DNA of 64,000 bases from Candidatus Nomurabacteria bacterium. Its GTDB lineage: Bacteria > Patescibacteriota > Minisyncoccia > Phycocordibacterales > UBA9973. Below are positions 7,768 to 60,367 of the stretch, piece after piece. The stretch is from positions 87,830 through 151,829 of the forward strand of contig JAHFNT010000002.1 of the NCBI GenBank assembly GCA_023267195.1, read 5' to 3'. The notes under the pieces are model-generated. The model saw only the letters and a list, made by a program, of their open reading frames with translations, had not been told where the DNA came from and ran no database searches. The stretch's first letter is position 1. Each line of letters opens with the position of its first letter. The position numbers and the translations under genes are program-made.

Positions 7768-9435
7768 TTAGGCTATATTTTGTTTATAGCACTCTTCACA
7801 AGCAACCTTCTGATATCCCCATTCCGGCGGATAATATGCCATTATATCTTTTTCGCAATAAAAACACTTATATGGATAACTTTTTATTATCGACATTTTT
7901 TTAATAGCTTTCATTATTCTCAAGTCAAAATGTAACCGAGGTAAAGCAAAATTTTTCCTTTTATGAAATTCATATTCTGTTGGGGCAATGTTAAACCTAT
8001 ATTTGGTTTCGGGACAAATTAAGGCTTGGAGAGAAATATCGGCCTTTGTGTCAATAATAGAATCTGGCAATTCAAGTGAAGAAATACCATCAGCGGATGA
8101 TAAATTTTCCTCTGACCAATAACCCTCTTTGTCTAGTATTTCCTTTTCCGTTATATTGGGGAAATATATAATCCCTGTAGAAAAATTATAGTCACACAAG
8201 CCCATAGAATATGGCAAAAATTTGCCATATTCCCCCCTCTTCTGCATGTCTCTAACAATCTGCTCGCGCAGCTTCTCATACTCTTCTTTGCTATATTGTT
8301 TATTCAAAATACAATACTTCTTTTTTCTAAGACCAACACACCCAAAGCAATATTCACATTCTATACACAAATCTAAATACTCAGAATACCTGGCATCTGA
8401 CCAAGATGAATGTTTGATCCCAAAGCCACCAAAAACTCCACTATTATTTCCTGACATTTCCGTATTCCATGTAAAAGTTTGATCAATAGAGTCCTTGGTT
8501 TTCATGCCCCTTATGTGATTTCTGCAATTTTGAGATTTTTCCCAAAAGAAACAGTTGACACATTTGTCACAATCAGTTAAATAATCTCCCGAGGAATTGG
8601 TTGTTCTTAAATTAAAATTCTCCCTATGTACAACTTCTTTCTTTAATATGTCTTCAAACTCTTTTTTTAGAACATTTATCTTGGAATAAGAATCGAATTC
8701 TACTTTTTTTATTCTTTCTTCATACTGTTCTTTGGTATATTGTGTGTTTCTTATACAATATTTTTTATTGCGTAAATTCCAAGACATAAAACAATTTTGG
8801 CAATTCCGACAATCGTACAAAAAATAAGAATCAATACAATCACGAGAATTTTCAGAAAAATTCAAATTATAAGAATTATGACAAGAAAGACAGTCGTAAG
8901 AGTTTTGTAAATTAAAACAGTAGACAATGTCGAAGGAATCTTTAGCCTCTACCACTCTGTACAGATAGCTAGAATTCTCACATTTCAATAAAGATCGAGA
9001 TAAATAACAATTTTTAGATTCCCAAACATCATCACACCAATCACAATTAGTACTATTTTCACCAGTCTGATGTGGACGAGGAATTTTTTCTTGAAGTTCC
9101 TTTAGTTGTGCAAAGAATGATTTACTTGGATCGTATTCTTGCGCATAAGATATTGGATCCCAACCATCACTCCACCATTCGTGTGATTTATAAATAGGGT
9201 ATCTAGATTTTTCCGGCAAAACAGTAATCAGGCTTTCTCCAGAAAGATCAGATTTACCCTTGCGAAATTTACCAAATATAACAAATGCAAAATGCTGTTT
9301 TATTCTACACAAAAAACACTGAGCGGGAATACTCAATTCAATTTTTTCATACAAACCCAAATCACCAGAATCTATTTCAAATTCATTTTTACAATCAACA
9401 CAAACTTTAGTTTGGTTCTTTGTATTCATATACAT
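7768..9435 (-). CDS. large cysteine-rich protein (paralog A), same architecture as 5936-7684
   Basis: VCVDCKNEFEIDSGDLGLYEKIELSIPAQCFLCR, WWSDGWD, NLRNKKYCIRNTQYTKEQYE, and a C-terminal QKVACEECY. Its start overlaps the grpE 3' end by about 29 nt. Confidence 0.7.
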   Translation of the reverse strand: MYMNTKNQTKVCVDCKNEFEIDSGDLGLYEKIELSIPAQCFLCRIKQHFAFVIFGKFRKGKSDLSGESLITVLPEKSRYPIYKSHEWWSDGWDPISYAQEYDPSKSFFAQLKELQEKIPRPHQTGENSTNCDWCDDVWESKNCYLSRSLLKCENSSYLYRVVEAKDSFDIVYCFNLQNSYDCLSCHNSYNLNFSENSRDCIDSYFLYDCRNCQNCFMSWNLRNKKYCIRNTQYTKEQYEERIKKVEFDSYSKINVLKKEFEDILKKEVVHRENFNLRTTNSSGDYLTDCDKCVNCFFWEKSQNCRNHIRGMKTKDSIDQTFTWNTEMSGNNSGVFGGFGIKHSSWSDARYSEYLDLCIECEYCFGCVGLRKKKYCILNKQYSKEEYEKLREQIVRDMQKRGEYGKFLPYSMGLCDYNFSTGIIYFPNITEKEILDKEGYWSEENLSSADGISSLELPDSIIDTKADISLQALICPETKYRFNIAPTEYEFHKRKNFALPRLHFDLRIMKAIKKMSIIKSYPYKCFYCEKDIMAYYPPEWGYQKVACEECYKQNIA

Positions 9436-32131: not shown

Positions 32132-33295
32132 TCAATTGTACCACTTTTTTAGTTTTTGCAAAATTTTAGATAAAGCTTTTATGGTGTAATCAATGTCTTG
32201 TTTGGTTGTGTCCCGTCCCAAAGAAAAACGCAAGCCTCCGATTTCAGTATCTGTTTCCGGACGTATCGCTTGGATAACATATGAGCCCTCTCCTCGAGAA
32301 CTTTTACAAGCACTTTTGGCTGAAATCAAAATACCCTTTGAGGAAAGCTCAATCACTAAAAGATCGCTTGGAATTTTCGGAACAGTTATATTTACATTAT
32401 TAGGCAATCTTAATTTAGAATCACCGTTTAGAATAATTTTAAAAGGCATTTGCAAAAGTTTTGAAATAAAATAATTGCGAAGTTTCACCAAGCGTTTTAT
32501 TTCTTTTTCTTTAACTTTTTCCACATTCTCTAGCGCTTTGGCAAGTTCTACCGCCAAGGCGACATTTTCTGTACCTGGTCGCAAACCGAACTCTTGCTCT
32601 CCACCAAACATAATTTGGCTGATCGGCGTATTTTTCTTTATGTATAAAATACCTATCCCCTTCGGCCCATAAATTTTTGCTCCGTTCAAAGACATTAAAT
32701 CAACACCCAGCTTCTCAACTTTTACCGGCAAATAATTAACGGCTTGCACAGCATCAGTATGGAAAAAAATTTTTTGTTTATTTATTTTATTGAAATACCT
32801 TATCTCCTTGGCGATCTCTTGGAGAGGCTGGACCGTTCCTATTTCATTGTTTGCATATTGCACCGAAACTAGGACAGTGTTCTGCTTCAACATTTTCTTT
32901 ATTTTTCTCGGATCAACTATGCCAGCAGGTTCTACTTCTATATATGTCACCTCTACTTGCCTGGTCTTCTCCAAATATCTAAAAACTTCCAAGACAGAAG
33001 AGTGCTCGATGTTTGTTGTTATGATGTGTGGCTTTTTAAAATTTTTAACTAACCCTAAAATCGCCAAATTGTTACTCTCAGTTGCTCCGGAGGTAAAAAT
33101 AATTTCCCCGTTTCTCGCACCCAATATATTGGCGATAATTTTTCTCGCACTTTCTAATTTGTTTTTTTCTTTCAATCCAAATTCATGAATTGCTCCCGGG
33201 TTCGCAGACTGAAAGAGCGCGCTCCCGGCATAATCTAGGTATATTTTCTTGATTTTTCTTGCCCCGCCACGATGGGATGAATTTGATTTGACCAT
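32132..33295 (-). CDS. cysteine desulfurase (class V aminotransferase, IscS/NifS/SufS family)
   Basis: IYLDYAGS...FTSGATESNN, PLP-lysine region, and C-terminal SAKSAC (active-site Cys loop). Confidence 0.85.
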   Translation of the reverse strand: MVKSNSSHRGGARKIKKIYLDYAGSALFQSANPGAIHEFGLKEKNKLESARKIIANILGARNGEIIFTSGATESNNLAILGLVKNFKKPHIITTNIEHSSVLEVFRYLEKTRQVEVTYIEVEPAGIVDPRKIKKMLKQNTVLVSVQYANNEIGTVQPLQEIAKEIRYFNKINKQKIFFHTDAVQAVNYLPVKVEKLGVDLMSLNGAKIYGPKGIGILYIKKNTPISQIMFGGEQEFGLRPGTENVALAVELAKALENVEKVKEKEIKRLVKLRNYFISKLLQMPFKIILNGDSKLRLPNNVNITVPKIPSDLLVIELSSKGILISAKSACKSSRGEGSYVIQAIRPETDTEIGGLRFSLGRDTTKQDIDYTIKALSKILQKLKKWYN

Positions 33296-33319
33296 AAAAA
33301 TAGTATATATTGAAAATGT

Positions 33320-33787
33320 ATGAATACAAATCTCGACAATGTTTTTTTCTGGGCTTTTTTTGTTTTCGCCTGCCTGGCCATATTAGTCGGCACTGTTTGG
33401 GCAGTTGTTACTGAAAAACGCTTAAAAAGATTTTTCCTAGGCAAAAAAGCTAAGGATCTCGAAGATACTATCACAATACTAGAAAATGAGATAGTTAAAT
33501 TAAATAAATCAAAAAATAATATTGAGAAAGAAATAGTTAATATAAATTCTAAGCTCAAGAAAAGCATCCGCGGCCTCGAGACCATACGCTTCAACCCGTT
33601 CCCCGACCAAGGTAGCAATCAAAGTTTTGCTATCGGAATGCTTAATGAAGAAGGTGATGGATTGGTAATGTCTAGCTTATATTCTCGCGAACGCATGAGT
33701 GTATTTGCTAAACCAATCAAAAAAGGGCAATCTACTTATGAATTAACAAGTGAAGAAAGGGAGGCTTTAGAGAAAGCAAAAGTGTAA
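33320..33787 (+). CDS. DUF4446-like membrane/coiled-coil protein
   Basis: TM, then a coiled coil, then TIRFNPFPDQGSNQSFAIGMLNEEGDGLVMSSLYSRE. Confidence 0.4.
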   Translation: MNTNLDNVFFWAFFVFACLAILVGTVWAVVTEKRLKRFFLGKKAKDLEDTITILENEIVKLNKSKNNIEKEIVNINSKLKKSIRGLETIRFNPFPDQGSNQSFAIGMLNEEGDGLVMSSLYSRERMSVFAKPIKKGQSTYELTSEEREALEKAKV

Positions 33788-33790
33788 TAT

Positions 33791-35326
33791 ATGGAAAAAG
33801 ATGCAAAAAAATCAAGTGTGCAAATGCGCGCGCCCATAGTGGCGGTTATGGGACATATTGATCATGGGAAATCAACGCTTTTAGACTATATCCGAAAAAC
33901 AAATGTGGTGGAACGTGAAGCAGGAGGTATTACTCAATGCATTTCCGCTTACGAGGTTTTGCATAAAGACGAAAAAGGTATTGAGCAAAAAATAACTTTT
34001 CTTGACACTCCAGGACATGAAGCATTTTCTAAAATGAGAGAGCGTGGAGCTGAAATAGCTGATATCGCCATTTTGGTTGTTTCAGCGTCCGAGGGAGTAA
34101 AACCCCAAACCATTGAAGCGTGGAAAACCATTGCCGAATCTAAAATCCCCTGCATTGTGGCGATAAATAAAATAGACACCCCGGGCGCCAATATTGAAAA
34201 GACAAAACAAGAATTAGCGGAGCATGAAATTTATTTAGAAAATTATGGAGGCAAAATCCCCTACGCCGAGATTTCTGCCAAAGTCGGCACTGGAGTGGAT
34301 AATTTATTGTCGCTCATTTTGATTTTGGCGGAGATGGAAAATTTCACAGGAAATCAAGCAGAAAATGCAACTGGCTTCGTCATTGAAGTAAATCTAGATT
34401 CAAAGAGGGGTATCTTAGCGACCTTGATCATAAAAAATGGTTCAATAAGAAAAGGAATGACTGTGGCGGTAGAAGATAGTATTTGCTCTACAAGAATTAT
34501 AGAAAATTTCAAGGGAGAAACAATAGATTCCGCCACTTTCTCTTCGCCCATACGCATTATGGGTTTTAATAAAATGCCTAGAGTTGGAGCAAAGTTTGTA
34601 TCCTTTTTGAAAAAGTCAGAGGCTGAAAAATACGCAGAAAATTGGCAAAATGAAAAAAATCTCGTAAAAAATAGAAAAATAGAAAGCAAAGAACAAAGTG
34701 AAACAAATAAAAAAGTAATACCAGTGGTATTAAAAGCAGATGTCTCTGGCTCAATCGAAGCCATTGAAAAAGAAATAAATAAAATAAAAAATAAACCGGG
34801 GCTCGAAAATGTGGAACTCAGAATTGTCGGCAGAGGCATAGGGCCCATTTCTGAATCAGATATGAAAGGCATATCTTCAGGTGAAGACGCACTGGTCATA
34901 GGATTCAATGTAAAAGCTGATCGTACTGCCATGGAAATTGCGGAAAAAAGAGGTATCGTAATTTCCTTTTTTGACATCATTTACAAAATGACGGAATGGT
35001 TAGAAAAACAGATGGAAGAAAAAAGGCCGAAAATTGAAACAATCGAAACAACTGGCCGAGCCAAAATTATTCGAGCCTTCAGTCGGACCAAAGAACGCCA
35101 GATAATCGGGGGTAAGGTAGTGGAAGGAAAAATCAGCCTAAACAGCACTGTCAGAATAATGCGCCGAGATTTTGAAATTGGGCGGGGTAAAATTGTAAAT
35201 CTAGAAAAAAGCAAAGTGAAAGCAAGCGAGGTAGGAGAAGGCGCCGAGTTTGGGATGATGCTTGAATCTAAAATAGAAATAGTGGCCGGAGATATCATAG
35301 AATCATTCGCGATAATACAAAAATAA
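33791..35326 (+). CDS. infB: translation initiation factor IF-2, short form
   Basis: RAPIVAVMGHIDHGKSTLLD, DTPGHEAF, NKID. Domains G-II-G3-C2 are present and the N-terminal extension is absent. Confidence 0.92.
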   Translation: MEKDAKKSSVQMRAPIVAVMGHIDHGKSTLLDYIRKTNVVEREAGGITQCISAYEVLHKDEKGIEQKITFLDTPGHEAFSKMRERGAEIADIAILVVSASEGVKPQTIEAWKTIAESKIPCIVAINKIDTPGANIEKTKQELAEHEIYLENYGGKIPYAEISAKVGTGVDNLLSLILILAEMENFTGNQAENATGFVIEVNLDSKRGILATLIIKNGSIRKGMTVAVEDSICSTRIIENFKGETIDSATFSSPIRIMGFNKMPRVGAKFVSFLKKSEAEKYAENWQNEKNLVKNRKIESKEQSETNKKVIPVVLKADVSGSIEAIEKEINKIKNKPGLENVELRIVGRGIGPISESDMKGISSGEDALVIGFNVKADRTAMEIAEKRGIVISFFDIIYKMTEWLEKQMEEKRPKIETIETTGRAKIIRAFSRTKERQIIGGKVVEGKISLNSTVRIMRRDFEIGRGKIVNLEKSKVKASEVGEGAEFGMMLESKIEIVAGDIIESFAIIQK

Positions 35327-35342
35327 TACCCCCTCCAAACCT

Positions 35343-35362
35343 CCCCCTTCGCAGGGGGAGAA
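35343..35362. repeat. GC-rich hairpin (CTCCCCC-TTCGCA-GGGGGAG) between infB and rbfA, member of the CCCTTCGC/CAGGGG repeat family
   Basis: Seen in sequence. There is no U-run on the + strand, so it is not a canonical terminator. Confidence 0.45.
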
Positions 35363-35374
35363 GGAATAAAAAAC

Positions 35375-35695
35375 ATGAACCGAAATGAAAAAGTAGCTGG
35401 AGAGATCAAAGAGCTGGCGGCACAATTTTTAGAACGTGAGAATGATCGAACTTCACTCATCACTATAATTTCCGCCAATGTTTCCCCGGACCTAAAAAGG
35501 GGAACACTGTTCATCACCGTACTTCCAACAGAAAAAGAGACGAGCGCGCTCAACTTTGTGAGAAGGCAACTTGGAGATTTTAGAAAATATTTGAAAAACA
35601 ATCTGCAGATAAAGACAATCCCCTTCCTTGATGTGGCTATAGATCTAGGTGAAAAAAATAGACAAAAAATTGACGAATTGCTCAGAGAAAAGTAA
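35375..35695 (+). CDS. rbfA: ribosome-binding factor A
   Basis: 106 aa with the KH-like RbfA pattern (...TLFITVLP...), in the conserved position downstream of infB. Confidence 0.85.
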   Translation: MNRNEKVAGEIKELAAQFLERENDRTSLITIISANVSPDLKRGTLFITVLPTEKETSALNFVRRQLGDFRKYLKNNLQIKTIPFLDVAIDLGEKNRQKIDELLREK

Positions 35696-35706
35696 TATGG
35701 CAAGAT

Positions 35707-35778
35707 GGCCTGGTAGCCAAGTGGTAAGGCATTCCTCTGCAAAAGGAATATACGGCGGTTCAATTCCGCCCCAGGCCT
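35707..35778 (+). tRNA. tRNA-Cys (GCA)
   Basis: Acceptor ggcctgg/ccaggcc, anticodon stem ttcct/aggaa with loop ctGCAaa, T-arm ggcgg-ttcaatt-ccgcc. Confidence 0.8.
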
Positions 35779-35896
35779 CAAAAAATTAAACAGTTTTAAT
35801 TTTTTGCTGGTTCGCAGCAAGCGAAATTGCCGATGTGAGACGAAATCGAGCAGGCAATAAGAAAAGAGATATGTTAAAATATTTTAGGATATAATT

Positions 35897-35978
35897 TGCC
35901 CGAGTGGCGGAACTGGTATACGCGCACGACTTAAAATCGTGTCTCGCAAGGGATGTGGGTTCGATTCCCACCTCGGGC
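35897..35978 (+). tRNA. tRNA-Leu (TAA)
   Basis: Acceptor gcccgag/ctcgggc, anticodon loop ctTAAaa, long variable arm, T-arm tgggttcgattccca. Confidence 0.78.
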
Positions 35979-36010
35979 ACTGGGAATCTTTAAAAATTAA
36001 ATATAAATTT

Positions 36011-36083
36011 GCGTCCATAGCTCAGCTGGTAGAGCAGATCCCTCTTAAGGATAAGGTCGGAGGTTCGATCCCTCCTGGACGCA
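36011..36083 (+). tRNA. tRNA-Lys (CTT)
   Basis: Acceptor gcgtcca/tggacgc, D-arm gctc-agctggta-gagc, anticodon loop ctCTTaa, T-arm ggagg-ttcgatc-cctcc. Confidence 0.7.
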
Positions 36084-36111
36084 CAGGGCAAAAATAAAGT
36101 AGTTTATTTTT

Positions 36112-36196
36112 GCCGGGGTGGCGAAATTGGCAGACGCACTTGCCTTAGGAGCAAGCGGAGTGATCCATGGGAGTTCAAGTCTCCCCCCCGGCACCA
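36112..36196 (+). tRNA. tRNA-Leu (TAG)
   Basis: Acceptor gccgggg/ccccggc, anticodon stem cttgc/gcaag with loop ctTAGga, long variable arm, CCA encoded. Confidence 0.8.
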
Positions 36197-36232
36197 CTTG
36201 ACTTTTACTCTTGAATATGCTATACTATACCT

Positions 36233-37060
36233 ATGAGTAAAATAAATAAAAAATCAATGAGTTTCGGCTTGAAAATATTGACTATTTTAGCTTTCTGCCT
36301 CCTTTTTGTACCTTTTGAAAAAGCGGCAGCATCCTATGGTACCAATATCACTTACAATGTAGGTGGTGGAAGCTATTTCGGCAGAACGCCCATAGATCAG
36401 CCGGTAGAAATAGAAAATAACCCGGTTCCGGGTGTCAGATCTATCAACCCAAGATCTGCCGACAGATATACAGGCGGAAAAACTATTACCATCACTGGAA
36501 GCAATTTCGTACCTGGTTCAGTAGCTAGATTGAACGGCTCAAATCGCCCCACAACCTTTATTGATTATTCTCATCTGTTGATTCAATTAAGCGCAAGCGA
36601 CATGAATCGTGCCGATGGTTTTTACATCACGGTCTTCAATGGTCTGCCTGGTGGTGGGTATTCTAATGCGGCTTTCTTCACTATCAAAAATGTCTCTCCT
36701 GCTTCCACTAACACAAGCAATAGCAATAACAACTTCAACAACAACTCCAGTGGCTATGATTATTCTGCCAATAGCAACTTTAACAACGCAAATAATACAG
36801 CCAACTGGAATACCAACACCTACGATGCTTATTCCAACACAACCAACACCACTACGGAAATAAACAGAACAAATGATACCACAGGAAACAGCTACAGCAA
36901 TTTAGCCTCGAATGCAATCTTTGGATCAAACACTTTCTTACCTTCTGGATTGGTGCAATGGGTATTGCTCGCAATAATCATCCTAATCATTGTGATCTTG
37001 GCAAGGAAAATATTCGGCGGAGAAAAGAGTTATCACGAAACACCGCTGAAACACGCGTAA
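36233..37060 (+). CDS. cell-surface protein: signal peptide, IPT/TIG-like Ig domain, N/S/T-rich low-complexity linker, C-terminal TM anchor
   Basis: The TIG-like segment is GGKTITITGSNFVPGSVARLNGSNRPTTFIDYSHLLIQL. The Asn/Thr/Ser-rich tract is followed by a hydrophobic C-terminus (VLLAIIILIIVIL) and a basic tail. Confidence 0.55.
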   Translation: MSKINKKSMSFGLKILTILAFCLLFVPFEKAAASYGTNITYNVGGGSYFGRTPIDQPVEIENNPVPGVRSINPRSADRYTGGKTITITGSNFVPGSVARLNGSNRPTTFIDYSHLLIQLSASDMNRADGFYITVFNGLPGGGYSNAAFFTIKNVSPASTNTSNSNNNFNNNSSGYDYSANSNFNNANNTANWNTNTYDAYSNTTNTTTEINRTNDTTGNSYSNLASNAIFGSNTFLPSGLVQWVLLAIIILIIVILARKIFGGEKSYHETPLKHA

Positions 37061-37080
37061 AAAAGCTTCAAAATAACGAA

Positions 37081-37115
37081 AAAGTCAGCCTCAATAGGGT
37101 TGACTTTTTCGTTAT
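37081..37115 (+). terminator. rho-independent terminator after the 36233-37060 gene
   Basis: aaagtcagcc-tcaata-gggttgacttttt (10-bp stem with one G-U) plus a T-run. Confidence 0.6.
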
Positions 37116-37128
37116 TGTATGATACAAT
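37100..37128 (+). promoter_or_regulatory. sigma70-like promoter (TTGACT-17-TACAAT) driving the GC-rich SPFH island transcript
   Basis: The -35 lies in the terminator's descending arm. About 250 nt of GC-palindrome-rich leader follows before the ATG at 37386. Confidence 0.4.
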
Positions 37129-37385
37129 ATCGGAGTATTCTAGTACTTTGAAAATAAGAAATAAAAACATTGAGGTAAGACCTCAGTGTTGAATAGTTGG
37201 CTCGCCAAGAAATGAAACAACCTCTCCGGCCTTCGGCCACCCTCTCCTGGCCAGGAGAGGGCCAGGGTGAGGTAGTCAAATTTATTTTTTAGCGAGCGAA
37301 CTATTCACGAAGTTTCAGTATTCACCAATCTCACAACCCGCGCCCGCGGGCGCACAACAGCGCCAACGGCGCAGGAGAAAAGAAA

Positions 37386-38243
37386 ATGAACGGAAATCTG
37401 GCACCACGCACAGAAACATCGGGGGGGCTGCTTATAAAACTGATCGGGCTAGGCCTGATCGGTGGGATCTTCTTCCATTGGCTCCTCCAGTTCTGGGGTG
37501 TGGTAATCTTCTTCGTGGTCCTCGCAATCACGACAGAATACTACACTGAGACGGTAGCTGGATACCGGGCCCACATCCTGCTTGACCAGTGGAAGGGCAC
37601 CCAGCGAACGGTCTTTCAGGGCTGGTGGTTCAAACTTCCTTGGGAAACTCTTACTCAGGACATCGATCTAAAGGGTGAACTCAAGGAAGTGCTCACTGAA
37701 ACCTACAGTTCTAGGGACGGATCGATGGATGTCAAGTATGTCTATACGATTCGCCCCGACTTTTTCGGTCCAGATGGAGGTGAGAAGATCATCTTGTATG
37801 CGTCCTTTGAAACGGACGTGATCAAGATGAAGGGCCGGGCCTGCGCCAGCCAGGCGCTGTCCGACTACTTCGGTACGAAACCGACCGAAGAGCTTCTCGA
37901 CAAGCACAAGATCGAAGAGGAAGCTCTTAAGTCTGGGTCGAAGGGGAAACTGAAGCTCGAAGAGTTCGAGAAACACTATGGAGCGAGGATCGAGATCACC
38001 CTCGAAGACAGCGATCGGGACAAGGCGACACAGGCTGCCCGTGACACTGTCTCGAAGGCGAAGTCGATCGCCGAGGCGAAGGCCGCGCTCGTGGCAACTG
38101 GTATGGATCCAGCAGTTGCAGACAAGACTGTAAGGATGCTCAACATCCCTGGTATCCAGGAGTACATCGTGAATCTGGATGCCAAGGGGCTTGAGAACCT
38201 AACCAGTGTGGTCATCGGCGGAGGACTCGGGGTGAAGAAATGA
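37386..38243 (+). CDS. SPFH / band-7 (stomatin-prohibitin-flotillin-HflK/C) family membrane protein
   Basis: N-terminal TM. TVFQGWWFKLPWETL..DLKGELKEVLTETYSSRDGSMDVKYVYTIRP and GARIEITLEDSD...AARDTVSKAKSIAEAKAA match the SPFH core and Ala/Glu-rich tail. The segment is high-GC, unlike the flanks. Confidence 0.6.
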   Translation: MNGNLAPRTETSGGLLIKLIGLGLIGGIFFHWLLQFWGVVIFFVVLAITTEYYTETVAGYRAHILLDQWKGTQRTVFQGWWFKLPWETLTQDIDLKGELKEVLTETYSSRDGSMDVKYVYTIRPDFFGPDGGEKIILYASFETDVIKMKGRACASQALSDYFGTKPTEELLDKHKIEEEALKSGSKGKLKLEEFEKHYGARIEITLEDSDRDKATQAARDTVSKAKSIAEAKAALVATGMDPAVADKTVRMLNIPGIQEYIVNLDAKGLENLTSVVIGGGLGVKK

Positions 38244-38662
38244 GCCATGATTCTTCTTCCCCCAACACTCCCCCTAGGGGACCTGCAGTCATCAGTGGGG
38301 TCTTCTTGTTGATCGCATTGATCTTGTCGGTAAGGGAATACAGGGCACAGAGGGCAACGCCCGACCCCACTCCGATCCCCACGCCGGCCCCCCACTACCA
38401 GCCCGCGCCGGCAGTTCCGACCCAGGCAAGGAGGCTCTACCTCTTTGCTGACTACCCGAACGGCGTCATCACGGTAGATGTACACATCGGGGAGGTGGAC
38501 TTCTACCCCAAAGGCGGAGAGGTGTTGATCACCCCTCCGCCCCCACTCAAGCCGTGGAAGGACAAGCCCGGAACGATCAACCCTCGCAGGAAGTTCATCC
38601 CGGGTAAATACAACATCCAAAAGTCAGATCCTGATGCCATCGGCATCGAGGTCTGGAACTAA
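38240..38662 (+). CDS. membrane-anchored Pro-rich protein, translationally coupled (ATGA overlap) to the SPFH gene; function unknown
   Basis: One TM (VISGVFLLIALILSV), a PTPIPTPAP linker, and a small beta-rich C-terminal domain. A weak resemblance to NfeD was considered but not supported. Confidence 0.45.
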   Translation: MSHDSSSPNTPPRGPAVISGVFLLIALILSVREYRAQRATPDPTPIPTPAPHYQPAPAVPTQARRLYLFADYPNGVITVDVHIGEVDFYPKGGEVLITPPPPLKPWKDKPGTINPRRKFIPGKYNIQKSDPDAIGIEVWN

Positions 38663-38713
38663 CAACTGTTCTTCGGCCACACATCGCGCCTGGCCAGCGT
38701 ACGCATCGAATCG

Positions 38714-38749
38714 AAAAGGGCGGACAGGTTTTGAAACCTACCGCCCTTT
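38714..38749. terminator. bidirectional hairpin terminator between the GC-rich island (+) and the pilin-like array (-)
   Basis: aaaagggcgg-acaggttttgaaacctac-ccgcccttt. Confidence 0.55.
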
Positions 38750-38777
38750 CTCAATTTCTACCCAAATTTTTTTCTTA

Positions 38778-39104
38778 CTAGCTAGGCTCAGGTAAATCCA
38801 CTGTTCCCTTTTCTGGATCTATTTGACTCTTGGGTATACCTAGTGTATTCAGAAGAATGCTGAGAATAGTCCAAACTCCCATCATTATGGTGATCCCTAT
38901 CACCCCCCAAAGCATATGGCTCTTCGCGGTTGTTTTTTTCTCTTCGTTTTCTTGATTCAAAAAGAACTGAAGAACGCCATAGAGAAAATAAAGTATCGCT
39001 AAAGCAAAAAGGAAAAGAATGAGTGGATTTATAATCACAGTATCAACTTTTGCTATAAAAGAATCCAAGCTAGCGTAAGCTATTTTTGTAGAAAATAAAT
39101 CCAT
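38778..39104 (-). CDS. small 2-TM hairpin 'pilin-like' membrane protein, paralog 5 of tandem array
   Basis: INPLILFLFALAILYFLYGV - NQENEEKK - MLWGVIGITIMMGVWTIL. Same helix / G.EE.K loop / GhhGhhhhhGhW helix architecture as 39110-41237. Confidence 0.55.
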   Translation of the reverse strand: MDLFSTKIAYASLDSFIAKVDTVIINPLILFLFALAILYFLYGVLQFFLNQENEEKKTTAKSHMLWGVIGITIMMGVWTILSILLNTLGIPKSQIDPEKGTVDLPEPS

Positions 39105-39109
39105 GTTTA

Positions 39110-39484
39110 TTAATACTGAACAGTTGGAAGATTTACATTCTGGACATTACCAACACCAAACGAGTCCAATAGAAGATTTACTAGACCCCAGACACCCACG
39201 ATAACCGCAAGACCGACTATACCGTAGATCATCACGCTTCTAGCGCTAGATTTCTTCTCTTCATCACCGGCAATAACATAGGAGATAACTCCCCAGATGA
39301 AGTAGAGTACTGCCAAAACGATGACTATTGGAATAGCAGCATTCAAAAAATCTCCTACTTTACAAAGCACATTCTGGATCGTTCCAGAATTAGTATTCAG
39401 GTCACAAAAAGCCTGAGTCTGTGCAAACGCAACGACCGGTAAACTCAAAACCAAACCTGACAATACCATTAATTTCTTTTTCAT
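39110..39484 (-). CDS. small secreted 2-TM hairpin 'pilin-like' protein, paralog 4
   Basis: Signal peptide, Cys pair (AFCDLN...VLCKVGD), AIPIVIVLAVLYFIWGV - AGDEEKKSSARS - MIYGIVGLAVIVGVWGLV. Confidence 0.55.
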   Translation of the reverse strand: MKKKLMVLSGLVLSLPVVAFAQTQAFCDLNTNSGTIQNVLCKVGDFLNAAIPIVIVLAVLYFIWGVISYVIAGDEEKKSSARSVMIYGIVGLAVIVGVWGLVNLLLDSFGVGNVQNVNLPTVQY

Positions 39485-39601
39485 AATTTATTTACCCCGC
39501 CTAGCGGGGCAAGCTAACAATAATTAATAATAAATGCGACCTATAATAATAAACTAATAATGTCCTCTAATTATAACCCTTAATAAAATTACAAGCAAAT
39601 A

Positions 39602-40411
39602 CTAATTCCCACTACACCCTGGATAATTGCCACAATAGTCTGGATCGGAAGGATCAAGAGAACAACTATTGCAGATATTGCCACCGCCTGTACCGCCTCC
39701 TCCCCCGCCAGTGGTAGTGGAAGAACTTGGAGGTGTAACTTGGGGCAGGATGGAAGTGTTGTTGATGCCGAAGGTAGCGCGCAGTATTCCTACCAATCCC
39801 CAAACAGACAGCATCACCGCGAAAGCTATAACTCCCCAGATCATGAATTGCTTGCCTTCGGATCTCTTCTCCTCTTCTCCGCCATTGATCAGAAAAAATT
39901 TTACTGTTCCCCAGATAAACATAACGAAAGCTATGGCAAAGAGAAGCGGAACTATAGAATCATTAATAATACTAGTTAGGTAACATAGAACATCCTGAAA
40001 CGTGGAAGAGCTGGTTATCCCAGAACAAGCGCTACTTGTCACTATGGGTTGAAGCTGAGGAGCAGTGGCTCCACCCAAATCAAAAGTATTAATTAAAATT
40101 TCAACAATCCCCCAGATACCGACGATGACAGTAAGACCGATAACCCCGAAAACCATTGTATCCCTGCCTTTTGTCTTGGCTTCTTCATCTCCACCGATGA
40201 CATATCGGATGACACCCCAAATGAAATAAGCGAGACCAAGGGCCACCAAGACAGGCACTACGGCCTTCAAGAGCTCCCCGATCTGACAGATTACCTTCCC
40301 TAGACCCGTCAAGGCATCACACGGCCCAGCCGCCCAAGCAATAAAAGGAAACAAAAAGAGCACAGGTATAATGAAACGAAACCTAGAAACAAATTTAAAT
40401 AAATTTTTCAT
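39602..40411 (-). CDS. tandem-duplicated (two-domain) 'pilin-like' protein, paralog 3, with Gly-run and Cys-rich C-terminal knob
   Basis: Two copies of the Cys-pair / helix / GGDEEAK or NGGEEEK loop / GxxGxxxxxGxWG unit. C-terminus is TTGGGGGGTGGGNICNSCSLDPSDPDYCGNYPGCSGN. Confidence 0.55.
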   Translation of the reverse strand: MKNLFKFVSRFRFIIPVLFLFPFIAWAAGPCDALTGLGKVICQIGELLKAVVPVLVALGLAYFIWGVIRYVIGGDEEAKTKGRDTMVFGVIGLTVIVGIWGIVEILINTFDLGGATAPQLQPIVTSSACSGITSSSTFQDVLCYLTSIINDSIVPLLFAIAFVMFIWGTVKFFLINGGEEEKRSEGKQFMIWGVIAFAVMLSVWGLVGILRATFGINNTSILPQVTPPSSSTTTGGGGGGTGGGNICNSCSLDPSDPDYCGNYPGCSGN

Positions 40412-40417
40412 AAATTT

Positions 40418-40798
40418 TTATTTTAACGCATTTACGGTGCTCTGGATCATCTCCGCAATAGCCCAAGAACCAAGCAGTATCCCAGCGCCGATTACTGTAT
40501 AAAGGAGGGCGTCCTTAGCCTTGGTAAGTTCTTCTTCCTTGCCTTGAGCTTTCACGAAAAGGAAACCGCAGTAAATAACAGCGAGCGCTATCAAGGGTAT
40601 GCCGACCTTAAGCGCGCCTTCTAAGATGACTTGAACAAGCCCTGGTATTGAGGTGATGTCCGGTATGGGGTTGCAGATTTTGCCGAGACAGGGATCAACA
40701 ACTGTTCCCCCTTGATCTGCAAATACAACAAAAACGGGCAGGAAAAAATAAAAACTACTTAAGATTAATTTCTGCCAATTTGTTTTTAAAAAATTCAT
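40418..40798 (-). CDS. small secreted 2-TM hairpin 'pilin-like' protein, paralog 2
   Basis: Signal peptide MNFLKTNWQKLILSSFYFFLPVFVVFA, Cys pair (DPCLGKICNP), GIPLIALAVIYCGFLFV - AQGKEEELTKAK - LLYTVIGAGILLGSWAIA. Start set at the internal ATG. Confidence 0.5.
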   Translation of the reverse strand: MNFLKTNWQKLILSSFYFFLPVFVVFADQGGTVVDPCLGKICNPIPDITSIPGLVQVILEGALKVGIPLIALAVIYCGFLFVKAQGKEEELTKAKDALLYTVIGAGILLGSWAIAEMIQSTVNALK

Positions 40799-40817
40799 TA
40801 CATTATTATACTCCATC

Positions 40818-41237
40818 TTAAAATCCAATCCAAGCCGCATCTTTATAACCTAAAATTACTAAGATCGTTTTGATGATAAGCCAAGCGGCCAGGGCGATGA
40901 TCAAACCTAGCGCCGCGTTGGTAAAAATATTTTTGGCTTCCGTCTTGGCACTAGCAGATTCTTCCCCAGCTGTCACCAATTTAAACCCCGCGTAAGCAAA
41001 CATGATGGCACAAATTGGCACTACCATGTATTTCAAAGTGAAAGTTATGAGGTTATTAACCAAAGCCAAAATCGCATTAAAATCGCAAGGCTGACCTTGT
41101 GAATTATCGCAGGGAACCAAGGGGTCCCCAAATGAATAAGCCGTGGTGAGCATCGGCAGAACTAGAATCATAAAAACAAACACTGAAACGATTAGGAACT
41201 TAGGAGTGCAAATTTGAAATTTATTTATTTTAGACAT
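40818..41237 (-). CDS. small secreted 2-TM hairpin 'pilin-like' protein, paralog 1
   Basis: Signal/TM, Cys pair (VPCDNSQGQPCDF), VVPICAIMFAYAGFKLV - AGEESASAKTEAK - FTNAALGLIIALAAWLII. Confidence 0.5.
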   Translation of the reverse strand: MSKINKFQICTPKFLIVSVFVFMILVLPMLTTAYSFGDPLVPCDNSQGQPCDFNAILALVNNLITFTLKYMVVPICAIMFAYAGFKLVTAGEESASAKTEAKNIFTNAALGLIIALAAWLIIKTILVILGYKDAAWIGF

Positions 41238-47596: not shown

Positions 47597-49195
47597 ATGA
47601 GCATTTTTGAAAGATGGCAAACAGGTATAGAAACAAAAACAAGTGCTGAAAAATTACCAAAATATCTGTCTATGTATAAAATTCCCGGGCACGAACAGAT
47701 AACTTATCACTCTTTTGTCAGATACCAAAAAGATAAAAAGCAAGATAAAGCGATAAAGGAAGCGGCAGATTTTGCGGCGAATTATAAAAAAAGGATAAAA
47801 AACTCCTCTCCTGAAGATATGATTACATTGATCGAGCAGGGCCTCGCTGAAAATAATGTAAAAACGCAAATAATGTGCGTAGAAATGATTAGGTATGTTA
47901 AAGAGATTGGCAAAAGATTTTCTCTTATTGAAAAGGTAATTGACATCGACAATGAAGAGTTGCAAGCCGCCTGCGCAGAAGCTGTCAGATATGTTCCATT
48001 GGATAAAAGAGATATCTTGATTGAAAAAGGTTTAAACTCCAACAATGAGGAAATACAAGCAGTTTACGCGGAAATGATTAGGTGTGTTCAAGAAGGCAGA
48101 AGAGCTGCATTAATTGAAAAATGCTTAGACATCTGTGGTCTAAAAGCTAGGGTTGTCGCAGCCTTAATGATTTTTCAATATACTACACCAAAAAACCGTC
48201 CAATGCTTGAAGAAAAAGTAGCTGCATTAGTTAAAAATTATTTATCTAGCAATAATGCTAAATTGCAAATAGGTTGTATCAAGATGATATGGAACGCACC
48301 AAAAGATCAGATGTCCACACTAATTGAACAAGGTATTGATACCAACAATATTGAAGTTCAGGCAGCTTGCGCTGGTATGATTGAATATATTATAGAAACT
48401 AACGAAAGAAAAAAACTTAGGGCAAAAATATACAGTGTTATAGAACAGGGTTTTGAAACAAACGATCCAGAAAAACATCTGTTTTGCGCAGAAATGATTC
48501 GCAGTATACCGACAGATCAACAAAATTTGCTTGGAGACAAGTTGGCATCTTTAATAAAAAAAATACTTGAATCTGACAATAGTAATGAAATTAAAAAAGT
48601 GTACGCGGCTATGATCTGTTATGCATCAGAAAACAAAAAAGCAGACCTTTTTAAGCAAGCCTGGGGGAAACTAGGCAATACTTTAATAGAACCACCTTTG
48701 TATGAAAATATGGATATGTCCAAAAGAAAATTTTCAAGAATGGAATTTTCAAAAACCGGTTCAGAAACTACGTTAATTGGAGGCAAATTAAAAGATAAAA
48801 TAATAATTAGGCATATTACACCAGAATCTTTCTTGGCCTGGCAAAAATTATACGAGGATTATGAAATGTGGGCAAAAGCAGGCTTTGATTATGTGCCCAT
48901 AGAACCAATACAGTCGTTTAAGTTAAATGGAAATGGTCTAGTCGATGTGTATAGTGGTGTTTTAGATTTGAATTTGGATGATTGGAAAAAATATATAGGA
49001 GGATATGACCGAGCTTTAGATGGTGTTAAAGAGCGCATAAAAGGTATTTTAATAGAAAGAGGAATAATTCATGGGCATGATTATCATGACGGAAATTTCT
49101 GCCTACGTTTTTTTAGAGACAAAAATGGCAATATAGATTTTAGTAAAAAACCACGTGTTTATATTATTGATTTTGACATGGCCACAATCATGTAG
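47597..49195 (+). CDS. fusion protein: N-terminal HEAT/PBS-lyase-like repeats plus C-terminal divergent RIO/Kdo-like protein-kinase-fold domain
   Basis: About 8 repeats of LIEQGL..NN.E.Q..C.EMIRYV with about 36-aa period. C-terminal IIHGHDYHDGNFCLRF...VYIIDFDMA resembles the RIO/Kdo-kinase catalytic and metal-binding loops (LVHGDLSEYN...IIDFPQ), with a non-canonical catalytic loop. Confidence 0.5.
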   Translation: MSIFERWQTGIETKTSAEKLPKYLSMYKIPGHEQITYHSFVRYQKDKKQDKAIKEAADFAANYKKRIKNSSPEDMITLIEQGLAENNVKTQIMCVEMIRYVKEIGKRFSLIEKVIDIDNEELQAACAEAVRYVPLDKRDILIEKGLNSNNEEIQAVYAEMIRCVQEGRRAALIEKCLDICGLKARVVAALMIFQYTTPKNRPMLEEKVAALVKNYLSSNNAKLQIGCIKMIWNAPKDQMSTLIEQGIDTNNIEVQAACAGMIEYIIETNERKKLRAKIYSVIEQGFETNDPEKHLFCAEMIRSIPTDQQNLLGDKLASLIKKILESDNSNEIKKVYAAMICYASENKKADLFKQAWGKLGNTLIEPPLYENMDMSKRKFSRMEFSKTGSETTLIGGKLKDKIIIRHITPESFLAWQKLYEDYEMWAKAGFDYVPIEPIQSFKLNGNGLVDVYSGVLDLNLDDWKKYIGGYDRALDGVKERIKGILIERGIIHGHDYHDGNFCLRFFRDKNGNIDFSKKPRVYIIDFDMATIM

Positions 49196-59657: not shown

Positions 59658-59666
59658 TGGTATAAT
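59658..59666 (+). promoter_or_regulatory. extended -10 promoter element TGgTATAAT for sodC, 8 nt upstream of the ATG (near-leaderless)
   Basis: ttTGgTATAATtgatttatATG. A TTATCCACA (DnaA-box-like) 9-mer lies at 59621-59629 on the opposite strand. Confidence 0.45.
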
Positions 59667-59674
59667 TGATTTAT

Positions 59675-60220
59675 ATGAATTATCAAATCAATGGAAAAGA
59701 AAATCTAAAAGTTAGGTGCGAGGTTGCTGGTGATGAAATTGCTGGTACAGCAGAATTTACCGAATACCAAGTCAATACCCAAAAGGTTGTGAAATTAGTT
59801 TTAAATCTAAAAGGAAATCCGGAAAAAATAAAACCGGGACTACACGCTGTGCACATTCACGAGAAAGGAACCTGCGAAGGAGGCTTTAAATGCGCTGGTG
59901 GACATTTCGATCCCGGCCCAGCTGGCAATAGTGACCCAGATGTGAACCATCCCCATCACGCGGGAGACCTACCGAACATATTAATAGACGAAAACGGTGT
60001 AGGAATGCTCGAAGCACTGACTACCAGGGTGACTTTATCCCCAGGGCCTACCTCCATCCTTGAAGCTACAGAAGGAACAGCTATTATGATTCACGCGAAT
60101 GAAGATCCATACAAAGGAGGAGAACATGGCTCCGGAGTTAGCGGTGGACCTCGCATCGCTTGTGGAATAATTAAGGCCGCCGCCGAGCCGGGGCAGGTAG
60201 GAGGAGAACACCATCACTAG
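59675..60220 (+). CDS. sodC: Cu/Zn superoxide dismutase, no signal peptide, His-rich C-terminal tail
   Basis: HAVHIHEKGTC...GGHFDPG...HAGDLPNI...IMIHANEDPY...GNAGPRIACGII-like motifs. The ORF-track start is TTG at 59666, overlapping the -10, so the ATG at 59675 was used. Confidence 0.85.
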   Translation: MNYQINGKENLKVRCEVAGDEIAGTAEFTEYQVNTQKVVKLVLNLKGNPEKIKPGLHAVHIHEKGTCEGGFKCAGGHFDPGPAGNSDPDVNHPHHAGDLPNILIDENGVGMLEALTTRVTLSPGPTSILEATEGTAIMIHANEDPYKGGEHGSGVSGGPRIACGIIKAAAEPGQVGGEHHH

Positions 60221-60234
60221 TTTACAATCAAAAC

Positions 60235-60260
60235 AAAACCCGCCAAGAAGGCGGGTTTTG
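60235..60260 (+). terminator. rho-independent terminator after sodC
   Basis: aaaacccgcc-aaga-aggcgggttttg. Confidence 0.65.
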
Positions 60261-60367
60261 TAATTGTTTTCATTTGAAGCGGGTGATGGCGAAACTCCAA
60301 CATATGTGCCTATGTGAGTGCGACCACCCGCCACAGATAAAAACAATTTGTTAATTATAACAGAAAT

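Follow-up and report, generated by a model that had tools for sequence, protein, structure and literature searches.

A GC-rich SPFH gene pair beside the pilin array of a Nomurabacteria genome: recent import or exchangeable cassette in a fixed slot?

A 64-kb stretch of a Candidatus Nomurabacteria genome (contig JAHFNT010000002.1), the whole of which is called the window here, contains an island of foreign-looking composition in which two overlapping genes encode an SPFH-fold protein (ORF1) and a membrane-anchored partner (ORF2). Between positions 37190 and 38760 (coordinates are window positions unless a locus label from L001 to L027 is given) the GC content is 0.551 vs 0.385 in the remaining window, which raises the question whether this gene pair, called the module below, was recently imported from a high-GC donor; a sequence-only reading of the region had proposed horizontal acquisition, possibly from such a donor. 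Our comparison with related loci points to a different answer. We propose that a fixed expression slot holds the island as an exchangeable cassette and that the composition of the island reflects that of a cassette pool, a reading to which we give even confidence. The cassette would thus look foreign because it is an exchangeable allele, rather than a recent import from a high-GC donor. The slot would consist of a native, near-consensus promoter fused to the terminator of the upstream TIG gene, a structured 5' untranslated region (UTR) and GCGCC hairpins at the Shine-Dalgarno (SD) sequence, and its 3' border would be formed by a hairpin and a bidirectional terminator common to a convergent array of VirB2-like pilin genes. 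Usually it would hold two translationally coupled genes, one for a membrane scaffold with SPFH fold and one for a single-pass membrane protein that carries a small beta-domain. Recombination among lineages would swap this cassette wholly or partly, so that SPFH subtypes and partner subtypes, and in some cases unrelated genes for membrane or surface proteins, form a mosaic, drawn from a pool with a GC content of about 0.5-0.58 and a GC content at third codon positions (GC3) of about 0.6-0.7, unlike the resident AT-rich genome.

The compositional deviation itself was recovered when windowed GC, GC3 and codon usage were recalculated, in agreement with the earlier description of about 1.6 kb of GC-rich DNA against AT-rich flanks. 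Fourteen 400-nt windows in a row have GC contents of 0.52-0.60, compared with a window-wide mean of 0.390 (sd 0.047), and no second GC island of similar strength was found with 400-nt windows in the 64 kb. The excess lies mainly at third codon positions: of the remaining ORFs, the 41 with 200 aa or more have a GC3 of 0.35±0.07 and the highest of them reaches 0.44, and the island genes (Table 1) lie about 4.5 sd above these host ORFs. Codon choice in the module is approximately the reverse of that of the host. Ile is encoded by ATC in 30 of 32 cases (19% in the host), Lys by AAG in 75% (24%) and Gln by CAG in 92% (37%); NNC codons make up 0.69 of the NNY families (0.34), the AAG/CAG/GAG fraction is likewise 0.69 (0.34), and the GC content of four-fold degenerate sites is 0.61 (0.44). 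A long antisense ORF, which had been attributed to the composition, is present at 37976-38620 on the minus strand and is an expected product of GC-rich sequence. The bias does not follow the codon usage of highly expressed host genes, because DnaK and the apparent RpoA, IF-1 and six ribosomal proteins (S9, L13, L17, S4, S11 and S13, all named by their N-terminal sequences) do not share it, with GC3 values of 0.26-0.37 and NNC fractions of 0.14-0.39 for this highly expressed set. Ordinary translational selection is thereby weakened as an explanation. The sharp GC steps could also arise from an assembly chimera in which a foreign GC-rich fragment was misjoined into an AT-rich contig of a metagenome-assembled genome, but we consider the chance of this negligible: independent assemblies from NCBI, JGI, ENA and Logan show the arrangement in more than 10 contigs, and the native promoter and the terminator common to the pilin gene run uninterrupted into the island.

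The module was located at the same syntenic position in at least 10 related Paceibacteria/Nomurabacteria contigs. The framework in these relatives consists of genes for an aminotransferase, DUF4446, IF-2, RbfA, (tRNAs) and the TIG protein, then the module, and then 4-5 convergent T4SS_pilin genes followed by SBP_bac_1 (SBP), a methyltransferase and GyrA; the order downstream of the pilins is the same in the window. Two clades, defined by GyrA, SBP, methyltransferase and IF-2, share the conserved right flank: clade A (window, L001, L004, L007, L018, L020 and L021), in which GyrA is 88-92% identical, and clade B (L005 and L009), in which it is 68% identical to that of clade A. The TIG gene and the pilins enclose the module in L001, L004, L007, L020, L021 (there with different slot contents) and L022; in L005, L009, L018, L023 and L024 it lies next to pilins. 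The slot is occupied in every sampled relative and only its contents vary, so that the module is not an insertion peculiar to the window genome. The conserved framework also includes the tRNA cluster and the TIG gene. The four clustered tRNA genes at 35707-36196 are Cys-GCA, Leu-TAA, Lys-CTT and Leu-TAG. The module makes heavy use of the G-ending or CTN codons decoded by Lys-CTT and Leu-TAG (such as the predominant AAG for Lys); the adjacency of cluster and module may be coincidental, as the cluster is conserved in relatives.

These observations bear directly on the recent arrival of an island from a high-GC donor, integrated near the tRNA cluster, which we regard as largely refuted and very improbable. 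The strong deviation in GC content and codon usage would fit such an import, as would the tRNA genes about 1.2 kb upstream and the occurrence of a related pair in a high-GC soil contig. The site is tRNA-proximal only in a loose sense, because the 828-nt TIG gene, which has a host-like GC3 of 0.44 and is the conserved upstream neighbour in clade A, intervenes between tRNAs and island, and both are syntenic in relatives. Contrary to the expectation that relatives would lack the island at this site, all of those sampled have the slot occupied, and in the soil contig the module is the lower-GC insert. Furthermore, the nearest relative of ORF1 is at most 55% identical, the promoter is of host type and collinear with relatives, and 10 of the 18 Arg codons in the module are AGG rather than the CGS codons of typical high-GC genomes. 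None of the precomputed Pfam matches within approximately ±6 kb of the modules in the relatives is an integrase or mobility gene (a result that covers the annotated relatives, not the ORFs around the module in the window), no direct repeat of 20 nt or more flanks the window module, and neither a high-GC donor nor a phage or plasmid relative was found. Of the features that define genomic islands, the locus thus shows the compositional deviation, but neither absence in relatives nor an integrase, repeats or insertion at a tRNA 3' end. As a finding that would speak against import, the sequence-only reading had named the same island at the same site in all relatives with host-like composition; the shared site was found, but the composition there is not host-like.

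An excess of GC3 over the host was detected in about 11 of 17 independent loci, at any host GC3 between 0.24 and 0.57. Module GC contents are 0.54/0.58 in the window (flanks 0.39), 0.54/0.59 in L001 (0.45), 0.43/0.49 in L004 (0.37), 0.52-0.54 in both tandem pairs of L007 (0.41), 0.53/0.59 in L018 (0.42) and 0.53/0.54 in L020 (0.35). Expressed as GC3, the module reaches 0.58/0.69 in L022 (flanks 0.31-0.43), 0.52 in L014 (0.33), 0.60 in L016 (0.34) and, with a different SPFH subtype, 0.66 in L011 (pilins 0.27). Module composition is host-like in L009, L010, L019, L023 and L024, and in L005 the module is AT-richer than the host (GC3 0.23 vs 0.44). The GC-rich copies of the clade are only 46-54% identical to ORF1 of the window, and one pair from other loci reaches about 70%. 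The composition anomaly belongs to the slot and not to the window genome. This is also evident from L021, in which the slot genes have GC3 values of 0.70/0.59/0.71 compared with 0.28-0.33 in the host.

L021 is the closest relative of the window by IF-2 (82%) and the TIG protein (61%), but its slot encodes a weakly Ig-like protein of 297 aa, a protein of 137 aa and a multi-transmembrane protein of 313 aa. DNA collinearity between the window and L021 extends from 33282 to 37128, where the -10 hexamer ends exactly. It sets in again at 38423, where the linker of ORF2 passes into the β-domain. Window positions 37129-38422 are thus replaced in L021, which retains the promoter, the leader hairpins, the 3' UTR and the C-terminal domain of ORF2; the latter forms the C-terminus of the 313-aa protein, with 70% identity to the ORF2 β-domain over 79 aa (tblastn).

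Sequence identities at the other loci are discordant with those of the flanks as well. ORF1 identity is flat: members of clade A share 46-54% and members of different clades 41-53%, whereas GyrA drops from 88-92% to 68% and SBP from about 70% to about 40%. L020 and L022 share 89% identity in pilin-1 and 66% in the TIG protein, but just 44% in the SPFH protein, and the SPFH proteins of L020 and L007 are 69% identical. Partners of the window type (46-63% identical; L021, L023 and L024) follow SPFH proteins that are only 25-29% identical to ORF1, whereas the ORF1-type SPFH proteins (about 50%) of L001, L020 and L022 carry unrelated partners, so that SPFH and partner subtypes assort independently. 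The contents of the slot are mosaic and the cassette is not stably inherited together with its flanks.

Two further kinds of locus show repeats around the pair, and together with the AT-rich module of L005 we count them as signs of mobility outside the window. In L025-L027, which come from three independent soil assemblies, an ORF1-family SPFH protein (45% identical to window ORF1 and 57-60% to members from the candidate phyla radiation) and a window-type partner are encoded on a high-GC contig without pilins. The pair is bracketed by a 21-nt direct repeat, abbreviated TATTCTGGGAA..GGCGGAAA, the two copies of which (TATTCTGGGAAGCGGCGGAAA and TATTCTGGGAAATGGCGGAAA; 19 of 21 positions identical) lie 1400 nt apart at L025 1005-1025 and 2405-2425. 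They coincide with GC steps from flanks of 0.60-0.69 to a module of 0.48-0.54, the module being the lower-GC part. The L025 contig also contains a weak match to Sigma70_r4_2 and a 188-nt match with 74% DNA identity to an Azospirillum plasmid gene. The L018 contig is 5.9 kb long and lacks the TIG gene as left neighbour of the module; here the whole transcription unit of SPFH and partner genes lies between two copies (616-698 and 2308-2390; 84% identical) of an 83-nt direct repeat, each of which forms two inner hairpins within a closing stem.

Exchange among lineages is the proposal that we favor for these patterns, but several observations weigh against it. At the slot, no recombinase, integrase or mobility gene was found in any annotated relative within the interval given above, and the module of the window lacks the flanking repeats seen in L018 and L025. 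Alleles more than 70% identical were not found in different hosts, so that exchange is deduced from discordance and no recent event was caught. Likewise, the family was not found at compositional equilibrium, with a GC3 of about 0.65, in any lineage, which makes the GC-rich reservoir hypothetical; if exchange occurred among AT-rich hosts only, the pool should decay towards AT unless GC-biased gene conversion (gBGC) or selection counteracts. Fast evolution and saturation could also flatten identities without exchange, and the pilin genes may have been exchanged themselves, which would confound the comparison with the flanks. Between genomes, the identities of pilin paralogues range from 30 to 89%, and the relationships of pilin-1 are incongruent with other genes too. 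Within the cassette reading, the GC-rich pool could be kept by the composition of a reservoir, by gBGC or by selection on the transcript.

In a purely conversion-based version, exchange across conserved 5' and 3' handles at a recombination hotspot would itself raise GC3, without a reservoir or mRNA selection. Such a process could reconcile exchange with GC enrichment and would agree with the mosaicism at the slot, with the conservation of the promoter/leader and 3' UTR/terminator regions as handles, and with the approximately symmetric enrichment of C- and G-ending codons (0.36 and 0.33 of third positions in the module). To our knowledge, however, an offset of +0.3 in GC3 is far above the effects of gBGC reported for bacteria. 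In addition, no GC3 gradient into the neighbouring genes was found in L021 or L007, and the clade B modules of L005 and L009 are AT-rich in the same kind of slot. Although a link between recombination and GC3 in bacteria was reportedly described by Lassalle et al. in 2015, we consider gBGC as the sole cause unlikely.

The expression signals of the slot are conserved. The 3' arm of the terminator hairpin of the TIG gene contains the -35 hexamer of the module promoter (Table 1), an overlap that is repeated in L001, L004, L007, L016, L021, L022 and L024, and the promoter is kept almost base-for-base in at least 10 loci. It is followed by a leader of about 250 nt, which folds with -105.5 kcal/mol between 37150 and 37400 (z = -9.3 vs shuffled sequence), as anticipated from its palindromes. 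These are present, including CCCTCTCCTGGCCAGGAGAGGG at 37240-37261, but the first reads GGCC-TTC-GGCC and not GGCC-TTCG-GGCC. A YTTTGAMAA box lies about 20-30 nt past the -10 hexamer in most of the leaders compared (by eye, without statistics). The 116-nt block consists of a 15-bp outer stem around a three-way junction with GGCC-TTC-GGCC and CCCTCTCC-TGGC-CAGGAGAGGG. It is lineage-specific, present in a single copy in the window and missing from L001, and at its place the L021 leader has a different long stem-loop (z -10.1). Its core (approximately 37216-37278) resembles the 83-nt repeats of L018 in architecture, with 3' halves about 73% identical; a pattern derived from both gave no further match, and a common repeat family is a weak lead.

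GCGCC-loop-GGCGC hairpins occur singly or in pairs in the leaders, and the one closest to the gene directly precedes the SD. GC hairpin 1 occurs in the window, L001, L007b, L016 and L020, with variants in L021, L022, L023 and L024. The SD-abutting hairpin has exact GCGCC/GGCGC arms in 10 independent loci in addition to the window, around loops of variable sequence and a length of 2-7 nt, and compensatory GCGTC/GACGC arms in L024 and L019b as well as a U·G variant in L022. L021 retains the GCGCC hairpins despite its different genes. The motif has 3 matches in the window, all within the island, compared with 0.07 expected, and is nearly confined to the leader position across all retrieved loci. 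Since the four arms at 37340-37372 read GCGCC/GGCGC/GCGCC/GGCGC, they can form two side-by-side hairpins or a single nested structure in which arm 1 pairs with arm 4 and arm 2 with arm 3; ViennaRNA favours the nested form in several loci, and the tandem hairpins could represent a two-state element. In L007 (4479-5794 and 6001-7355) and L019 (125-1467 and 1668-2695), the SPFH-partner pair is duplicated in tandem, which adds to the evidence for exchange, and each pair has its own promoter and leader; the two SPFH copies of L007 are only about 24% identical, and just one of them is Band_7-positive.

At the 3' end, the CTGGCCA loop of the UTR hairpin is found with covarying stems (by eye) in L021 (GCGC/GCGC), L018 (GCGT/ACGC), L022 (ATGCG/CGCAT) and L024 (GCACC/GGTGC), and L025 keeps the hairpin as GCGC-CAGACCA-GCGC. 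The hairpin terminator that had been noted at the end of the island is there, and its motif AAAGGGCG...CGCCCTTT is conserved in relatives; because its loops differ in length between loci, the arms do not line up in a MAFFT alignment, and a covariation count on it was disregarded. Behind the partner stop codon, L001, L007, L018, L020, L021 and L022 contain an SD-like GAAAGGAGGTGA box that is missing from the window. The box is a near-perfect extended SD, complementary to the 3' end of 16S rRNA, and its opposite strand mimics an anti-SD; a small ORF behind it was rejected as start codon and frame are unconserved (by eye). At gathering score, an Rfam scan returned only tRNAs and nothing for leader or 3' UTR, and at E≤10 only chance-level matches far under the gathering scores for 37050-38850. 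We regard the 5' GCGCC hairpins and the 3' CTGGCCA-loop hairpin as candidates for new cis-acting RNA elements, which may serve in mRNA stabilisation, SD insulation, processing or as recombination handles.

In the main alternative explanation, the module descended mostly vertically and GC-ending codons and hairpins were kept in situ by selection for an unusually stable, structured or slowly translated mRNA. Resistance to AU-preferring RNases and pacing of membrane-protein insertion are conceivable scenarios, and in that case the composition would reflect function instead of history. That the GC excess begins and ends with the transcription unit, that unstructured leader segments are AT-rich (0.24-0.38) and hairpins and coding sequences GC-rich, and that the unrelated slot genes of L021 are equally GC3-rich all agree with such selection, as do the near-consensus promoter with its extended -10 and the strong SD. 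In the window, two-fold sites shift more than four-fold sites, Ile is encoded almost exclusively by ATC, and Arg uses AGG instead of CGS. Moreover, the GC3 excess persists between orthologues of about 50% identity, at which synonymous sites should be saturated many times, and a close donor allele is absent from 5.8 billion clustered proteins. Against this stand the highly expressed genes without bias, and the four-fold shift equals the two-fold shift in L007b and L021. Transcript selection also leaves unexplained the L005 module that is AT-richer than its host, the repeat-bracketed L025 module that is GC-poorer, and the discordance between flanks and cassette. We consider it possible, but doubtful, that it accounts for the island.

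Table 1. Features of the slot and its immediate neighbours in the window (z, folding energy relative to shuffled sequence).
Feature	Position	Strand	Remarks
Secreted IPT/TIG-domain protein, C-terminal membrane anchor	36233..37060	+	Pfam TIG E 6.9e-8
Terminator hairpin of the TIG gene	37078..37110	+	fold -18.1 kcal/mol, z -7.0
Sigma-70-type promoter TTGACT-17 nt-TACAAT, TG-extended -10 (TGATACAAT)	37100..37128	+	10/12 match + TG
CTTTGAAAA box (YTTTGAMAA in relatives)	37146..37154	+	early leader
Leader hairpin A (ACATTGAGGT-AAG-ACCTCAGTGT)	37166..37190	+	part of minimum free energy fold
116-nt stem-closed block	37191..37306	+	-61.4 kcal/mol, z -8.2
GC hairpin 1, GCGCC-CGCG-GGCGC (GCGCCCGCGGGCGC)	37340..37353	+	conserved
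GC hairpin 2, GCGCC-AAC-GGCGC	37360..37372	+	abuts SD directly
SD AGGAG	37373..37377	+	8 nt 5' of ATG; placement conserved
ORF1, 285 aa	37386..38243	+	GC1/2/3 0.57/0.38/0.66
ORF2, 140 aa	38240..38662	+	GC1/2/3 0.54/0.48/0.73; start overlaps ORF1 stop
3'-UTR hairpin GCGC-CTGGCCA-GCGU	38686..38700	+	fold; 7-nt loop
GC-rich bidirectional terminator (AAGGGCGG...CCGCCCTT)	38715..38749	+	fold; common to convergent pilin gene
About 5 VirB2-like T4SS_pilin genes	38778..41237	-	right flank; convergent; host-like composition

In Table 1, the pilin assignment is based on PF18895 for 38778-39104, 39110-39484 and 39602-40411 and on synteny for the other two genes.

The identification of ORF1 as an SPFH protein holds at the level of the predicted fold. 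An AlphaFold2 model built on 19 homologues (predicted local distance difference test (pLDDT) 78.9; 80-94 across residues 10-250) consists of an N-terminal hydrophobic helical hairpin (residues 13-48, with helices 13-34 and 36-48), an SPFH alpha/beta domain and long C-terminal helices (213-237 and 242-252), so that both an N-terminal membrane anchor and a C-terminal helical region, as in SPFH proteins, are predicted. Foldseek retrieved 42 significant matches (E≤1e-3) in the PDB, every one an SPFH protein (best E 7.5e-9, probability 1.00), among them prohibitin, stomatin, HflK/C, QmcA, flotillin, erlin and the major vault protein of vaults. At the sequence level, membership in the SPFH/Band-7 family appears remote and indirect. 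ORF1 has no match in Pfam (Band_7, PF01145, is absent even at E≤1), NCBIfam or PHROGs, and single-sequence and profile searches against PDB sequences returned nothing. Band_7 was detected at E≤1 in 7 of the 20 aligned sequences (the 19 family members and a paralogue from L007; best 2.8e-10), and hhalign aligned the ORF1 family over 206 columns with a Band_7-positive protein of the neighbouring type (probability 40%, E 3e-4). A word-indexed search found 20 clusters of the family, and a search of 1.84 billion representatives at E≤1e-3 found 228; no relative above 55% identity was found in 5.8 billion clustered proteins. Every relative that has a name or an informative context belongs to Patescibacteria (Nomurabacteria, Paceibacterota), except the high-GC soil contig type; none was detected in phages and plasmids (tblastn) or in IMG/VR (pattern and tblastn).

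ORF2 is the partner of the SPFH protein by position, but not a recognisable NfeD protein. As described in the sequence-only reading, it is a translationally coupled, proline-rich membrane protein: its start codon overlaps the ORF1 stop codon as ATGA (38240-38243), and its model (pLDDT 83.1, above 90 in the β-domain) contains a transmembrane helix (15-38), a Pro-rich disordered linker (39-62) and a compact all-β domain (64-139), ending with IEVWN. A membrane-anchored protein in an operon with an SPFH gene is also what characterizes NfeD-like partners, and pairing of SPFH and partner genes is kept in at least 15 loci. However, the C-terminal OB-fold of NfeD (PF01957) was not found in ORF2, and no NfeD or OB-fold match was obtained, including YbbJ of the QmcA-YbbJ complex that matched ORF1. 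Searches of Pfam, NCBIfam, PHROGs and PDB sequences gave no match to ORF2; the β-domain has no significant fold neighbour in Foldseek (best E 0.04, cupin- or β-roll-like), and viral structure models gave nothing significant.

By analogy with other SPFH proteins, ORF1 may oligomerise into a membrane-attached ring or cage, with which the partner would be anchored in a position analogous to that of NfeD partners. The pair might thereby organise a membrane microdomain, plausibly for the neighbouring pilin or type IV secretion system (T4SS)-like apparatus. This last role, suggested by adjacency and general knowledge of SPFH proteins, is a further point at which the proposal is vulnerable.

SPFH genes are typically paired with nfeD. 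The module resembles such SPFH-NfeD operons, for example E. coli QmcA-YbbJ (PDB 8z5g) and archaeal PH1511/PH1510, in the SPFH fold, N-terminal anchor and long C-terminal helices of ORF1 and in its coupling to a small anchored partner with a C-terminal beta-domain. It differs in that the SPFH protein is too divergent for Band_7 and belongs to a small family of 228 clusters, and in that the partner is encoded downstream instead of upstream, lacks similarity to NfeD or OB-folds and occurs in interchangeable subtypes.

O-antigen and capsule loci with their JUMPStart/ops leader are variable surface loci of atypical GC content that are exchanged between conserved flanks. Like them, the slot holds an envelope cassette of non-host composition between conserved flanks and behind a conserved 5' leader element, with alleles that are flank-discordant and apparently swapped. 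Unlike them, it is GC-richer and not AT-richer than the host, measures only about 1.3-2.3 kb with 2-3 genes, encodes a cytoplasmic-membrane scaffold pair instead of glycan synthesis, and has a GCGCC hairpin at the SD in place of ops/JUMPStart.

Integron gene cassettes are promoterless ORFs with a hairpin-forming attC site at the 3' end, and are inserted behind a fixed promoter. The slot is similar in that its resident promoter and leader are constant while the contents can be exchanged, in a 3' hairpin that seems to travel (it is kept in L025) and in one case of short direct repeats. In contrast to integrons, it holds a single cassette and no array, breakpoints may fall inside a gene, and no IntI-type integrase was found within approximately ±6 kb of the relatives' modules (the rest of the window was not scanned). 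Core sites R''/R' or attC were not recognised by eye, without a formal test.

A bolder interpretation would be an undescribed gene-cassette system of Patescibacteria that is recombinase-less or acts in trans. The fixed promoter and leader would be the platform and the hairpins the handles for recombination or processing; cassettes, as membrane or surface modules with a GC-rich composition of their own, would move between Patescibacteria and even into high-GC bacteria, together with the GCGCC (5') and CTGGCCA-loop (3') hairpins. The high-GC recipients would possibly be hosts of Patescibacteria, with the L025-L027 copy as an example, and a VirB2-like/T4SS apparatus is a conceivable transfer route. 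We judge such a system to be distinctly improbable.

Further observations concern other parts of the window. At 47852-48303, three diverged copies (60-72%) of a 53-nt unit are spaced by about 200 nt within the ORF at 47597-49192(+), which suggests an internally repeated protein. Two adjacent paralogous ORFs (582 and 555 aa) on the minus strand at 5939-7684 and 7771-9435 have CxxC-rich N-termini and the lowest GC3 nearby (0.26-0.28), and are linked by the 41-nt repeat D12. Beside tRNA-Pro, 60226-60360 (-) gave sub-threshold Rfam matches to amino-acid-operon leader or terminator-type families (Phe_leader with 47.4 bits compared with a gathering score of 55, E 1.5e-6) and is probably a generic terminator-like structure. 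A GC bump at 59800-60100 lies inside the ORF at 59666-60217.

SPFH operons as such and variable envelope loci with atypical composition are already known. VirB2-like pilin arrays have been described for Patescibacteria in a study that mentions neither an SPFH partner operon nor the compositional anomaly (PMC12102498); the slot module adjoins such variable pilin arrays in convergent orientation and is itself not a T4SS component. New are the divergent family of SPFH proteins and partners in Patescibacteria that is linked to these arrays, the organisation as a fixed slot with swappable cassettes and no recombinase in sight, the +0.3 offset in GC3 that persists across lineages with orthologues only about 50% identical, and the conserved UTR hairpins. 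For annotation, the locus is a warning that a sharp GC island alone is no evidence for a recent high-GC import. Patescibacteria have tiny genomes and live attached to hosts, and their envelope and pilin/T4SS-like machinery is central but poorly understood. In these organisms, the slot provides a concrete, testable case in which to ask whether a reservoir, biased gene conversion or selection on the mRNA maintains gene-specific composition.

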